Shown piece by piece: positions 20,522-26,083 of a stretch of 64,000 bases of DNA (positions are counted from its first letter, which is position 1; every line of letters begins with the position of its first letter). Source of the DNA: Escherichia phage Turkey5; sequence record PQ471516.1. One strand, 5' to 3'. The translations under genes and the position numbers were made by a program. A model generated the notes under the pieces. That model was not told the DNA's origin, did no database searches, and saw only the letters and a program-made list of their open reading frames with translations.

Positions 20522-20752
20522 GTGAAAAACTTAAGTAAAGATGAATACGATGAGTTACTTATACGAACTGTTAATAAAGCCTTTGGAGCCGCTACACCGT
20601 TGATACGTTTGGATTACTTCCTTTCGGCTACTCTAGGAACTAACTATCAGGATTTTTGGATAGATAAGTATATTGCACAACTAAAAGAAGATATAACTTA
20701 CAAGGTAGTCAATTACACTATACAAAACGCTATTACTAAAGGTAACAAATGA
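20522..20752 (+). CDS. Family A small protein (76 aa), 'LGTNYQE' motif family
   Basis: GTG start 6 nt after RBS AAGGAG; promoter TTGACT N16-17 TAAAAT at ~20463-20495; motif ATLGTNYQDFW. Confidence 0.65.
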   Translation: MKNLSKDEYDELLIRTVNKAFGAATPLIRLDYFLSATLGTNYQDFWIDKYIAQLKEDITYKVVNYTIQNAITKGNK

Positions 20753-20976
20753 AAGTCATAACACAAACACAAGCGTATTCACTTATGCTGCTTTACATGG
20801 ATGACTTAACCAGTATCTCCCGTGACCTCAATCCTTTGATTAGGGGTCATCTGCAATGTGAGATTCGCATGTTGGCTGTACTGGGGACCAACTTTCAACT
20901 GGAGTACGTTGAAGAATATCTTTACGCACTGAAGAGGTATATTGCACATGAAGCACATCTCGCCGGACGAACATGA
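20749..20976 (+). CDS. Family A small protein (75 aa)
   Basis: ATGA overlap with upstream gene; motif AVLGTNFQLEY. Confidence 0.65.
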   Translation: MKVITQTQAYSLMLLYMDDLTSISRDLNPLIRGHLQCEIRMLAVLGTNFQLEYVEEYLYALKRYIAHEAHLAGRT

Positions 20977-21166
20977 AGAAATCATTAGAAAACTCACACA
21001 GCAAGCATTAAATCTGTATAACGATCCATCTAAAACATGGTATGAAAATAGAATCGCAGTGAGTGACTTATGGGTTCTGCACTTTATCGGGACACAGTAT
21101 CAAGAAAGGTATCTGGATCAATTGATTGGACATTTACTGCAAGGAATTATAATTAAATGCGAATGA
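20948..21166 (+). CDS. Family A small protein (72 aa)
   Basis: Motif HFIGTQYQERY; overlaps upstream gene by ~29 nt in another frame; start uncertain. Confidence 0.55.
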   Translation: MKHISPDEHEEIIRKLTQQALNLYNDPSKTWYENRIAVSDLWVLHFIGTQYQERYLDQLIGHLLQGIIIKCE

Positions 21167-21405
21167 AAATCCTAAGCGAAGTAGAATTTTCTGAAAGAAT
21201 GAAACTAGGAAGAAACGCCAGATTAAAAGTCTACGATGAAGTGGGGTTAACTAACACACAAAGGGCCGTAAAGCGTGCGGAAATAACATTACCTTACTTC
21301 CTTGGGACGAACTATCAGGAAACGATGATTGAGAACTATATAAATGACCTTAAATTTCACATCCATGAAACATATAAAGGTGTACTGAATGAAAAAACTA
21401 AGTAA
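21157..21405 (+). CDS. Family A small protein (82 aa)
   Basis: Motif YFLGTNYQETM; start overlaps upstream stop. Confidence 0.6.
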   Translation: MRMKILSEVEFSERMKLGRNARLKVYDEVGLTNTQRAVKRAEITLPYFLGTNYQETMIENYINDLKFHIHETYKGVLNEKTK

Positions 21406-21631
21406 TTACGATTACTTCAAACTATTGGACGGCATCAAAGGTGACATACGTTTAATTCATAAAACCGAAACCATTCCAAGGGACGATAGGATTATTATTG
21501 TATCAGAAATGAAACTCAAACTCCTTGTGGGAACCGATAGACAGAATATCGCGGTGGACTTACTTATATCATCCTTACGCAATAAGATATGGAACCAATA
21601 TAATGAAGACAATCGACATAAAGGAATTTAA
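21389..21631 (+). CDS. Family A small protein (80 aa)
   Basis: Motif LLVGTDRQNIA. Confidence 0.6.
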   Translation: MKKLSNYDYFKLLDGIKGDIRLIHKTETIPRDDRIIIVSEMKLKLLVGTDRQNIAVDLLISSLRNKIWNQYNEDNRHKGI

Positions 21632-21830
21632 CATTAGACTGGCTCGAACTCGTGCACTAAGACAACAGATTTTCTACGATACAAACACACCACAAACCAA
21701 AAAGGATGTTGCAATATCAGAGATTAACATGTATAGTACCTTGGGAACGCAATACCAAGAGATGTACGTCCAAGAGCATGTACTGAACTTGAAAAAGGAA
21801 ATCCAACATGAAATACATCGATGCCGCTGA
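21603..21830 (+). CDS. Family A small protein (75 aa)
   Basis: Motif STLGTQYQEMY; ATG 21603 chosen (track ORF extends upstream); 29-nt overlap with previous gene. Confidence 0.55.
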   Translation: MKTIDIKEFNIRLARTRALRQQIFYDTNTPQTKKDVAISEINMYSTLGTQYQEMYVQEHVLNLKKEIQHEIHRCR

Positions 21831-22047
21831 AAAACAACGTAGATTAATGGAATCGCTTAAAGCATGTAAAAAGATTTTCAATGACTATACGATTACACAT
21901 GAAGAACGAATGGTGCTAATCGCTGAAACCCGCGTTCTGGTTATGCTGGGAACATCTGAACAGGAAGGTGCAGTTGAAATCTTACTTAAGGAAATGCAAT
22001 TCCACTTAAAACGAAGAGACAAAGATGAAACACTTGACAAGCGATGA
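21808..22047 (+). CDS. Family A small protein (79 aa)
   Basis: Motif VMLGTSEQEGA. Confidence 0.6.
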   Translation: MKYIDAAEKQRRLMESLKACKKIFNDYTITHEERMVLIAETRVLVMLGTSEQEGAVEILLKEMQFHLKRRDKDETLDKR

Positions 22048-22285
22048 ATTGAATGCTAAATTAAACCATGCTTTCACGTTAAGAACAAGAATTATGATGA
22101 ACAAGAATTACAGCATAAACGAAAAACGTATCCTCTGCGTAGAAGCTACTATGGGTGTACTGTTAGGAACTACCAAGCAAGAGCATCACGTTAATCTTGT
22201 TATCATGGAATTACTCCAGGAAATCAAAGGTAAAATCTATATTCAAAATATGAGAAAAGCTATCCACAGGAAGGATACTGTATGA
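22025..22285 (+). CDS. Family A small protein (86 aa)
   Basis: Motif VLLGTTKQEHH. Confidence 0.6.
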   Translation: MKHLTSDELNAKLNHAFTLRTRIMMNKNYSINEKRILCVEATMGVLLGTTKQEHHVNLVIMELLQEIKGKIYIQNMRKAIHRKDTV

Positions 22286-22500
22286 AGATGTTGAGTCCTC
22301 TGGAATACATTTTAAAAATAAGCTCTACTAAACCAACCTATAATAACCTTTGTTCTACTCTGGACTTAACCAAAACAGAAAAAGATCTACTAAGGCGTGA
22401 TTTGGAGTTGGGTGTACTGTTAGGGACAAACTATCAAGAAAATTATGAAGTGTACTTTATCGAATCTTTAATCAGAGAAATAGAATGCAAAATGAAATGA
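22282..22500 (+). CDS. Family A small protein (72 aa)
   Basis: ATGA overlap; motif VLLGTNYQENY. Confidence 0.65.
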   Translation: MKMLSPLEYILKISSTKPTYNNLCSTLDLTKTEKDLLRRDLELGVLLGTNYQENYEVYFIESLIREIECKMK

Positions 22501-24347: not shown

Positions 24348-24604
24348 CAGCAATGAAAGAATTAAGACACGAAGATTACTTTACTTTTATTTCAAAGCAC
24401 AACCAACAGTACAAAGAATTTAAAGAGCAGAGTACTTCCCATTATGAGTACTGCGTATTAAGTACTGATTATACTTTAGGTTTTACAGTAGGAACTACAT
24501 TACAGGAATACTCTATTGGTTTGCACTTAAATGCATTAGAAAGATTAATTCAAAGTAAAGTCCTAGAACATGAACAAGAAAATAAAAATACTAACAAAAA
24601 GTGA
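24344..24604 (+). CDS. Family A small protein (86 aa)
   Basis: ATGA overlap; motif FTVGTTLQEYS. Confidence 0.6.
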   Translation: MTAMKELRHEDYFTFISKHNQQYKEFKEQSTSHYEYCVLSTDYTLGFTVGTTLQEYSIGLHLNALERLIQSKVLEHEQENKNTNKK

Positions 24605-24806
24605 ATACGCAGAAATCATTTTCAATTCTATACACAAGTACCAGTACTTAAAAGATAATTACGAATCGATAGAGTTAGAAGTTAAAAAAGCAGACTTAGA
24701 TGTATTAATAGCTTTAGGTACTAATTATCAAAAGTACAGTACTCCAAGATTAATAGAAGTATTACTACAAGAGGTCCAAAGTAAATGCAATGACAATAAC
24801 AATTAA
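24570..24806 (+). CDS. Family A small protein (78 aa)
   Basis: Motif IALGTNYQKYS. Confidence 0.6.
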   Translation: MNKKIKILTKSEYAEIIFNSIHKYQYLKDNYESIELEVKKADLDVLIALGTNYQKYSTPRLIEVLLQEVQSKCNDNNN

Positions 24807-25056
24807 TAAGAACATAGTAGTAATACAGTACATGAGTTCTGTGCAGTACAAAAATGAAATTGCTAAAATGCAGAGCAATAGTACAGAAGACCGTTCTAAG
24901 TACTTGTGGTTAGTACAATCCAGAGAAATCGTTTTAAATAAATTTATAGGGACAGATGCACAAGAGTATTGCTTAGAGCAGTACATTGAAGCGTTGATGA
25001 TGCACATCAGAGGTCTTAAGAAATTACGTTACAGTATTGACAGTACCAGAAAGTAG
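24790..25056 (+). CDS. Family A small protein (88 aa)
   Basis: Motif KFIGTDAQEYC; start uncertain (alternative ATG at 24832). Confidence 0.55.
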   Translation: MTITINKNIVVIQYMSSVQYKNEIAKMQSNSTEDRSKYLWLVQSREIVLNKFIGTDAQEYCLEQYIEALMMHIRGLKKLRYSIDSTRK

Positions 25057-25094
25057 TGCTATAGTACCTGTACGTTCAATAAAGGGTAGAGATT

Positions 25095-25331
25095 ATGATT
25101 AAATTAGCATTCGGTATTGTAGTACTGGCACTTGCAATCAGCTTAGGTCTAGCTGCACTAGAAGTTAATGAATTAGAAGAGATGCATTGCACAAAGACAG
25201 GACAGAGTAGAGTTGAAACGGTTATGATACCCGTGACGGTTATTGTGAATAACATGCCTATCACAAATCTGATTCCTACCCTAACGACAACGTACAAGTA
25301 CACTTGTGATGACGGAGAGCGATGGAGATAA
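25095..25331 (+). CDS. small membrane or secreted protein (78 aa) with N-terminal hydrophobic helix
   Basis: N-terminus MIKLAFGIVVLALAISLGLAAL; RBS AAAGGGTAGAG. Confidence 0.55.
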   Translation: MIKLAFGIVVLALAISLGLAALEVNELEEMHCTKTGQSRVETVMIPVTVIVNNMPITNLIPTLTTTYKYTCDDGERWR

Positions 25332-25570
25332 TGCATTACAAACATCTTCCAGAAATGGAATTCAGACGCATGTCCAAATCAATCAGACAAAAATACATTG
25401 CAACACAAAGGTACAACCTAAAGTACAAGCACAATATCCATGACGAACGATTGCTGTACGTAGTAGGGACCGAGTATCAGGATAGGGTTGTTAATTCATA
25501 TTTGTACGCCCTAAAAGAGTACATCCTATATCTTTGTAATAACACACAGCACATACAGGACATAAAATGA
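25322..25570 (+). CDS. Family A small protein (82 aa)
   Basis: Motif YVVGTEYQDRV. Confidence 0.6.
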   Translation: MEIMHYKHLPEMEFRRMSKSIRQKYIATQRYNLKYKHNIHDERLLYVVGTEYQDRVVNSYLYALKEYILYLCNNTQHIQDIK

Positions 25571-25887
25571 AATTTAATATCCTAAGAGTATCAAAAAGAG
25601 CGATTTATGCATATGAGTTTAATTATGATCAATTTGATGTAGATATCATTTTGTACAAGAACCGTGAAGGTGAAATGCTTTTTAAGTACCAAAATAGTGA
25701 AGCAGATAATATTCCTTTACCGGATTTAACCAAAATGCAAGAGGATGAATTCTTTCAGCAGAGCTTAGTATACGATATTGATTTTTATAGTATAGATATT
25801 CTTTTAGCTTTACAGAAAAAGATGCACGAAATCTTTAATGATTTAGCCCAAGGCGATGATAGTGCAAGGTTCGTATTCAATGTTTAG
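25567..25887 (+). CDS. Family B (short subtype) protein (106 aa)
   Basis: ATGA overlap; motif EDEFFQQSLVYD. Confidence 0.6.
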   Translation: MKFNILRVSKRAIYAYEFNYDQFDVDIILYKNREGEMLFKYQNSEADNIPLPDLTKMQEDEFFQQSLVYDIDFYSIDILLALQKKMHEIFNDLAQGDDSARFVFNV

Positions 25888-26083
25888 AAACATAGATCCC
25901 AGTCAGTACGCAACCATGTACAGAGATTATTGGATGCAAAGTTCCAGTACCAAGTCCCTTGCGGAATTTCGTATGATATATTTTCTTGGTACAGAGAATC
26001 AAGAAGAAACGATGCTGGACTATCTTGAAGTACTAAAGGTTGAAGTACAAGATGAATACATATTAGGGGTTATAGAGCAGTGA
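25856..26083 (+). CDS. Family A small protein (75 aa)
   Basis: Motif YFLGTENQEET; start uncertain (alt ATG 25880). Confidence 0.55.
   Translation: MIVQGSYSMFRNIDPSQYATMYRDYWMQSSSTKSLAEFRMIYFLGTENQEETMLDYLEVLKVEVQDEYILGVIEQ

Follow-up and report, generated by a model that had tools for sequence, protein, structure and literature searches.

The stretch analysed here (hereafter the window) comprises 64,000 nucleotides of Escherichia phage Turkey5 (sequence record PQ471516.1), and contains a tandem array of small paralogous genes that starts just past the inner end of the phage's direct terminal repeat. The array consists of 20 + strand open reading frames (ORFs) between positions 20522 and 26083, each encoding 72–88 amino acids with the motif G-T-x-x-Q at equal relative position, as found from the ORF list and a six-frame motif scan; these are hereafter referred to as family A. 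Two further members are located ∼3.6 and ∼9.7 kb downstream of the 20-member block, inside a second array of longer genes (array B). The family-A array is real and well defined, and represents a viral multigene family arranged in tandem close to the end of a genome; it is typical of jumbo-phage 'dark matter'. Its products may serve host takeover or anti-defence; so far, nothing indicates a new mechanism.

Membership, conservation and relatives of family A

I built a hidden Markov model (HMM) of the family from the array ORFs, and ran it against the 998 stop-to-stop ORFs of the window. The 20 array members and ORF 35828–36037 were recovered with E-values between 3.5e-27 and 1.4e-14, and ORF 29670–29864, in which the motif reads G-S-N-M-Q-D, was additionally picked up with an E-value of 1.6e-7. 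No 23rd member was found among these 998 ORFs, the next-best match having an E-value of 0.76. With a 30-column position-specific scoring matrix (PSSM), the 22 members score 40.9–65.0 bits, against 5.9 bits for the top non-member. All 22 reading frames are intact, and the start of member 6 is the ATG at 21603, not the TTG at 21525 further upstream.

An earlier note on this DNA, made without database searches, had described about 20 consecutive proteins of ∼75 amino acids with an 'LGTNYQE' core, and extra copies at 29670 and 35828 inside array B. The HMM, the alignment and the PSSM bear out the tandem array, and the HMM confirms both extra copies. The note would have been contradicted if the members failed to align at the motif, or if the motif were as frequent in shuffled translations. 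The 22 members do align at the motif, from end to end, with G and Q invariant and T present in 21 of them, and the highest PSSM scores in shuffled proteomes (n = 20) range from −5.8 to 13.0 bits, against at least 40.9 in the members; the observation of an array therefore stands. Two parts of the description need correction. The shared position of the core holds, but the exact heptad does not: the core is [LIV]-G-T-x-x-Q-[ED], in which the x-x pair is variable, with N or D at +1 in 14 of the 22 sequences and Y at +2 in 10, and 'LGTNYQE' is its modal form, not a rule. Similarly, the genes form a same-strand series but not an unbroken one, as three unrelated ORFs intervene (23273–23641, 25095–25331 and 25567–25887).

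Sequence conservation among the paralogs is limited (19–30% identity to the reference member). All ten family-A members tested match PHROG 4148, a profile of 74 positions and unknown function: eight of these span profile positions 1–2 to 69–73, with E-values of 1e-8 to 2e-18, while the two outliers match its C-terminal half, at 2e-9 (35828) and 5e-4 (29670). By these profile matches family A is PHROG 4148, and was already catalogued; the entry is without function, structure or genomic organisation, and what is added here is the array structure, the repeat-adjacent position, a fold prediction and a selection analysis. Searches of Pfam, NCBIfam and PDB sequences with family A gave no match above threshold, and the sole PDB sequence match, to interferon omega (E-value 0.014), was judged spurious. 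Against 1.84 billion representative proteins, the family profile retrieved just 85 clusters, all of 44–122 amino acids, most of which map onto Asteriusvirus genes; family A is narrow and phage-restricted. A search for related loci with a tightened DNA pattern recovered phages 121Q and RaK2, plus 13 chance loci devoid of family members. The small products have no hydrophobic segments, and the net charge of the window paralogs varies between −7 and +6. A uniform charge, as in a DNA mimic or nucleic-acid binder, is ruled out by their isoelectric points (pI), which span 4.2–10.0.

In megablast searches with window positions 20400–26200, the closest record, and the sole near-identical one, is Escherichia phage vB_EcoM_JNE01 (hereafter JNE01; Asteriusvirus, 355.6 kb), which is 96.2% identical along 97% of the query. 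This places the window in a jumbo coliphage of the 121Q/PBECO4 type, genus Asteriusvirus. Every gene under this match is annotated 'hypothetical protein'. A further 30 Asteriusvirus records cover just 4–8% of the query, at 77–83% identity.

Copy number of family A differs between these phages, with 22 members in the window, 21 in JNE01, 26–27 in 121Q (the tally depending on the search) and 30 in vB_Ec-M-J. The difference to JNE01 can be traced to a 173-bp deletion (window 22282–22454; ∼21880 in JNE01), which takes out most of member 9 and yields a chimeric 95-amino-acid gene made of member 8 and the tail of member 9. In gene order, the window is roughly collinear with 121Q and vB_Ec-M-J; the best protein matches are 25–79% identical, and the adjacent repeat DNA is 91–96% identical. 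Within the window a single pair, members 13 and 14, exceeds 50% identity (52%), so that the duplications are old. More distantly, Klebsiella phage RaK2 (Alcyoneusvirus) has ∼10–14 members in small clusters, and three metagenomic contigs have arrays of 16–18 members, many with another N-terminal motif (Y-K-x-x-P) and the same L-G-T-x-x-Q core.

I then compared reciprocal-best orthologs at the codon level, and computed aggregate ratios of nonsynonymous to synonymous substitution rates (dN/dS). Family A has a dN/dS of 0.29 between the window and JNE01, and of 0.40 between 121Q and vB_Ec-M-J, against 0.27 and 0.26, respectively, for the other ORFs of the same loci. As a whole, the family is under purifying selection, and consists of real, maintained genes. 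Positive selection was not seen in aggregate in these four genomes (0.29–0.40); a few single pairs exceed 1, on very few substitutions.

Tandem gene arrays in phages 121Q and G have been mentioned before, in one sentence (Hua et al., 2017; mBio, PMC5646251), and for this reason the novelty of the array is modest. The 26–27 family-A genes of 121Q are located at the syntenic site, but the genes meant in that report are not named (these may be family B, or A and B together), they are called 'very similar' whereas family-A paralogs are 19–30% identical, and neither function nor structure is given.

Terminal repeat, promoters and predicted fold

The record of vB_Ec-M-J annotates a direct terminal repeat at 1–21525; the first gene of family A in that phage begins at 21624. 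Alignment of the intergenic region from the four phages (window, JNE01, 121Q and vB_Ec-M-J) places the equivalent repeat boundary at ∼20431/20432 in the window, directly after ...GGGTAACC. In the related phage fEgEco12, a ∼21-kb repeat has been confirmed by restriction digests (PMC13070987).

A sigma-70-like promoter, TTGACT-16-TAAAAT (20464–20491), starts ∼30 bp past this boundary. The −35 and −10 hexamers (the latter reading TAAAAT or TATTAT), an AGGAG and the start codon are kept in all four phages, while the spacers differ. A second site, TTGACA-17-TATAGT with an upstream TG (25037–25065), is a better match to the sigma-70 consensus, and lies ahead of the last five array genes. The earlier note had the array driven by one upstream promoter; the upstream site is indeed present and conserved, but 'one' is incomplete because of the site at 25037. 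Promoter-like sites are fewer within the array than expected from shuffles (23, against 29.5), only two of these being strong, and no + strand terminator-like site was found in 19900–27000. Most array junctions are overlaps of 4–35 nucleotides, often ATGA, and a purine-rich Shine-Dalgarno-like sequence is found 5–12 nucleotides upstream of most members, a packing that would be expected for translational coupling.

The repeat part of the window (1–20000) is organized differently. Its + strand carries ten perfect TTGACA-16/17-TATAAT sites and many of the form TTGCAA-16-TATAAT, at a density of roughly one per intergenic gap; promoter-like sites number 106, against 68 expected, and terminator-like hairpins 24, against 13. 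This suggests a putatively early region dense in promoters, after which come one or two long operons. A host-type promoter at the repeat-bearing end, as looked for in an early takeover block, is present in the conserved site at 20464–20491, as judged by consensus matches only.

Several sequence elements around the repeat boundary and in the repeat may be noted. A block at 20378–20450 (GGGATTGGACTATG ... ATGCGTGGGGGG ... GGGTAACC|TTAGCGACTTCGA), conserved in the four phages, spans the inner boundary, and might contribute to defining the end of the repeat when the DNA is packaged. In the spacer that separates the array from the last gene of the repeat region, an 80-bp unit is present as a tandem duplicate (20191–20350, 77/80 identical); it is single-copy in JNE01, 121Q and vB_Ec-M-J. 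Another element is repeated four times, at 9571–9606, 13314–13349, 16619–16654 and 18881–18916, and consists of a hairpin with a 12-bp stem (AAAGGGATTGACTCNGGTCAGTCCCTTT) holding the −35 TTGACT of a promoter-like TTGACT-17-TATTAT; overlapping a promoter as it does, the hairpin might act in regulation or processing.

A structural model was generated for member 4 with AlphaFold2, using an alignment of the 22 paralogs only as input. The model has a predicted local distance difference test (pLDDT) score of 96.9 and a predicted template modelling (pTM) score of 0.81, and possesses four helices, at residues 8–17, 19–26, 33–48 and 54–81. From this one modelled member, the products are predicted to be a compact four-helix domain, and fold searches with the model identified no specific analogue in the PDB or among viral proteins. 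Conserved columns are mostly hydrophobic (L6, Y/F11, L15, I25, V38, L45, L49, V58, Y61, L62, L65 and I69), with a few conserved polar positions (K4, E10, E/D42, E/D55 and K66).

In the model, G50-T51 fall within the five residues that connect helix 3 to helix 4, Q54-E55 form the first turn of helix 4, and the backbone of T51 bridges to residue 4, near the conserved N-terminus M-K-x-L. The earlier note had asked whether the motif forms a helix-turn or a binding loop; since it corresponds to the helix 3–4 link and the opening of helix 4, 'LGTNYQE' would, on the simplest reading of the model, chiefly be a hinge in the structure, with conserved polar residues around it. T or Q may also act as a helix cap.

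Possible functions of the array

The function that I favour, with a probability of roughly 45%, is the following. The block would be transcribed early in infection by the host RNA polymerase, from its own conserved sigma-70-like promoter, and its mostly overlapping genes, with their internal Shine-Dalgarno sequences, would be translated as a coupled operon. The products would be a set of small binding proteins that share one scaffold and have diversified, each towards a different host or competitor target, and this battery would serve host takeover or anti-defence. Early transcription by the host polymerase and a coupled operon are suggested by the start next to a repeat dense in host-type promoters, the conserved promoter, the overlaps and the Shine-Dalgarno sequences.

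A number of points weigh against this proposal. Sequence, profile and fold searches found no homology or fold similarity of family A to any characterised takeover or anti-defence protein. I found no Asteriusvirus transcriptomics or functional study of these genes in the literature searched, and the proposed early timing is read from promoter consensus and position. With an aggregate dN/dS under 1, an arms race is not directly apparent, and neighbouring non-family genes of the same variable region diverge similarly. Finally, known phage anti-defence proteins are usually single-copy, and do not form families of 20–30 members.

Known systems offer partial parallels. In the host-takeover module of SPO1 and the pre-early region of T5, many small genes are located at the repeat-bearing end, in one direction, with strong host-type promoters and good ribosome-binding sites. 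The window likewise has small same-direction genes at its repeat-bearing end, but there is no sequence or fold relation, the SPO1 and T5 genes are mostly mutually unrelated whereas 20–30 paralogs are found here, and the family-A array is just outside the repeat, with one or two promoters and not one per gene. In poxviruses, and in the MGF360/505 genes of African swine fever virus (ASFV), tandem paralog families near the termini have lineage-specific copy numbers, and are linked to host-defence evasion (PMC13359090). Family-A copy number similarly varies between close relatives; however, the accordions of these viruses are recent, near-identical copies, while family A has diverged (52% for the best pair), and a link of family A to defence evasion would be by analogy; there is no homology to these families.

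A more specific form of the binder proposal can be considered, and I regard it as rather unlikely. The conserved end of the bundle, made up of the N-terminus, the conserved acidic residues and the G-T-x-x-Q-E hinge, would bind one shared hub in the host (a protease, RNA polymerase or a ribosome-associated factor, for instance), while the hypervariable faces would each capture a different defence or toxin protein, making the array an 'adaptor library'. Were this the case, the array would neutralise many immune systems simultaneously, with a fold not seen before, and no larger anti-defence multigene family would be known from any phage.

Together, families A and B take up ∼30 kb of a genome of 350 kb. 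Asteriusvirus jumbo phages are being isolated for therapeutic use on pathogenic E. coli and Salmonella, such that their first-expressed genes and their handling of defences bear on host range. If the products are diversified inhibitors or adaptors, the array offers about twenty natural variants of a small, confidently foldable scaffold, a set that could be tried against host proteins and defence systems; family A would then be the bacterial-virus equivalent of the multigene families at the termini of poxviruses and ASFV. Should the copies be dispensable, the array is instead evidence of jumbo-genome growth by duplication.

Among the alternatives, the products could be small DNA-binding regulators, in which helices 1–2 form a degenerate Cro/C1-type (XRE) helix-turn-helix (HTH), and paralogs with different operators or host sites reprogram transcription. 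The model does have two short helices (8–17 and 19–26) with one residue between these, several members have basic C-terminal tails, and hhalign places the conserved L-S-x-x-E-Y in the canonical 'helix 2' register of Cro/C1 proteins, a weak register match of this helix pair to HTH helices 2 and 3. Adjacent members 23645 and 23866 also show weak matches to Pfam HTH_26 (E-values of 0.05–0.07), and one member to NCBIfam HipB (0.065). However, the Pfam matches are sub-threshold (14.2 and 13.9 bits at best, for a cut-off of 22) and concern two of the 22 members, the profile probability is 0.5%, and fold searches give no support. An HTH identity was rejected at the level of the family, on the scores below the curated threshold and the profile probability, and I consider this explanation unlikely.

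It has also been proposed that jumbo genomes grow by tandem duplication, with the 121Q array cited for this (Hua et al., 2017; PMC5646251). The array would then be largely ballast, made of tandem duplicates tolerated by a large headful/terminal-repeat capsid (a 'ratchet'), with copies that now contribute little. The gain and loss of copies between close relatives, and the dN/dS of 0.40 against 0.26 for other ORFs in the 121Q/vB_Ec-M-J pair, agree with this. However, dN/dS is well below 1 in both comparisons, the 22 frames are intact and most have Shine-Dalgarno-like sequences, the promoter is conserved, and core residues are kept across genera (in RaK2) and in metagenomic relatives. The paralogs are also ancient, and not recent amplifications, making this explanation quite improbable.

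About as doubtful is an action against other phages or mobile elements (superinfection exclusion, or inter-phage competition) and not against the host. It shares the early-type promoter, the diversification and the copy-number turnover with the binder proposal above, and small genes of the adjacent repeat have been exchanged with unrelated ∼145-kb coliphages, which implies frequent co-infection. Nothing supports it specifically, however: the members are unlike any known exclusion protein, and are devoid of membrane segments.

Finally, jumbo phages package many proteins, and these products are small, numerous and helical, as would suit virion-packaged internal proteins or assembly chaperones. 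This is very improbable, as none of the family-A homologs of phage phAPEC6 (∼gp467c–gp489c) is among its 62 virion proteins detected by mass spectrometry (Table 1 in PMC7247149), a list in which proteins of 8–10 kDa would give few peptides, and as the genes are in an early-type region with a host-type promoter upstream, far from structural modules.

Array B, the LLGTNFRE tail and other features

Array B immediately follows the family-A block, and encodes family B, with ∼45 genes of 100–205 amino acids (26080–50324), a nearly invariant F-Q and the motif E-E-x-x-F-Q-x-S. Family B matches several PHROGs of unknown function, and the model of one product (27072–27659) has a pLDDT of 65.9, with residues 49–120 unreliable. 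The earlier note had placed the family-A motif at the C-terminus of a longer protein in this region, and deduced domain shuffling between the two arrays. Homology between A and B, and with it domain shuffling, is not supported, since the two profiles are unrelated (hhalign probability of 0.2%, 9 aligned columns); the family-A HMM matched no family-B protein.

The longer protein, encoded by ORF 37735–38277, has no full family-A domain. It does end with LLGTNFRE (...YLNSLLGTNFREHLNARRFIQNKLQIE), but R replaces the invariant Q, and the family HMM scores this tail of ten residues at 3 bits. Its top short-BLAST matches are family-A members at the correct position, with E-values of just 0.002–0.1, and no ortholog of the protein was found in 121Q, vB_Ec-M-J or RaK2. 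Because a deletion fusion is seen directly in JNE01, where member 8 is joined to the tail of member 9, a relic of such a fusion would be a more economical explanation for the tail than a shuffled domain. Complete family-A domains with a C-terminal extension of ∼55 amino acids are found in RaK2 and metagenomic relatives, and not in this window; the extension has a strand/helix-like sequence, with no match in Pfam or PHROG.

The coordinates of the array and its flanks are listed in Table 1. One of the three unrelated ORFs within the array (25095–25331) is probably membrane-anchored or secreted, on account of its hydrophobic N-terminal segment, and the strong promoter-like site at 25037–25065 lies directly ahead of it as a promoter of its own.

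Table 1: Features of the family-A array and its flanks. Positions refer to the window unless another genome is named; aa, amino acids.
Feature	Position	Strand	Evidence
Conserved block (four phages), up to the inferred inner end of the left direct terminal repeat (∼20431/20432)	20378–20431	+	Alignment with vB_Ec-M-J
Sigma-70-like promoter TTGACT-16-TAAAAT, upstream of array	20464–20491	+	−35/−10 conserved in four phages
Member 1, 76 aa, TLGTNYQD; GTG start preceded by AGGAG	20522–20752	+	ORF list, HMM
Member 2, 75 aa, VLGTNFQL	20749–20976	+	ORF list, HMM
Member 3, 74 aa, FIGTQYQE	20942–21166	+	ORF list, HMM, PHROG
Member 4, 82 aa, FLGTNYQE; protein modelled	21157–21405	+	HMM, PHROG, AlphaFold2
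Member 5, 80 aa, LVGTDRQN	21389–21631	+	ORF list, HMM
Member 6, 75 aa, TLGTQYQE	21603–21830	+	HMM, PHROG
Member 7, 79 aa, MLGTSEQE	21808–22047	+	ORF list, HMM
Member 8, 86 aa, LLGTTKQE	22025–22285	+	ORF list, HMM
Member 9, 72 aa, LLGTNYQE; missing in JNE01 (173-bp deletion)	22282–22500	+	HMM, genome comparison
Member 10, 84 aa, FLGTDIQE	22485–22739	+	HMM, PHROG
Member 11, 85 aa, TLGTDIQD	22711–22968	+	Motif scan, HMM
Member 12, 75 aa, TIGTDAQS	22983–23210	+	ORF list, HMM
Unrelated 122-aa ORF within array, no family match	23273–23641	+	ORF list, HMM
Member 13, 74 aa, TIGTNYQE	23645–23869	+	HMM, PHROG
Member 14, 79 aa, ILGTNYQE; nearest paralog member 13 (52%)	23866–24105	+	HMM, PHROG
Member 15, 81 aa, LLGTNYQE	24102–24347	+	HMM, PHROG
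Member 16, 86 aa, TVGTTLQE	24344–24604	+	ORF list, HMM
Member 17, 78 aa, ALGTNYQK	24570–24806	+	ORF list, HMM
Member 18, 88 aa, FIGTDAQE	24790–25056	+	ORF list, HMM
Second sigma-70-like promoter TTGACA-17-TATAGT, 11/12, with TG	25037–25065	+	Promoter scan
Unrelated 78-aa ORF, hydrophobic N-terminal segment IKLAFGIVVLALAISLGLAAL, PHROG 8826	25095–25331	+	ORF list, PHROG
Member 19, 82 aa, VVGTEYQD	25322–25570	+	HMM, PHROG
Unrelated 106-aa ORF, PHROG 13866	25567–25887	+	ORF list, PHROG
Member 20, 75 aa, FLGTENQE; final array gene, 4-nt overlap with first family-B gene	25856–26083	+	HMM
Divergent member 21, 64 aa, FWGSNMQD, inside array B	29670–29864	+	HMM, PSSM, PHROG
Member 22, 69 aa, YLGTQHQE, inside array B	35828–36037	+	HMM, PSSM, PHROG
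LLGTNFRE peptide at C-terminus of 180-aa ORF 37735–38277; possible family-A relic, no full domain	38206–38229	+	HMM, short BLAST
Family-A domain fusions	RaK2 10125–10532, 13808–14158; metagenomic L004 6446–6844, L006 8428–8835		

A tRNA scan of the window found none. In 2-kb windows over 20000–64000, the G+C content falls from 0.35–0.41 in the terminal-repeat region to 0.33–0.36 over both paralog arrays, and the GC skew is positive throughout these positions. Segments of the repeat region (1380–2383, 11888–12313, the 14268 region and 17404–17598) are 83–90% identical in DNA to unrelated coliphages of ∼137–150 kb, and include a 92-amino-acid ORF (1432–1710) and a GNAT acetyltransferase region; records labelled 'Campylobacter phage' match as well. 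This similarity points to recent horizontal exchange of the small, putatively early genes of the repeat region.

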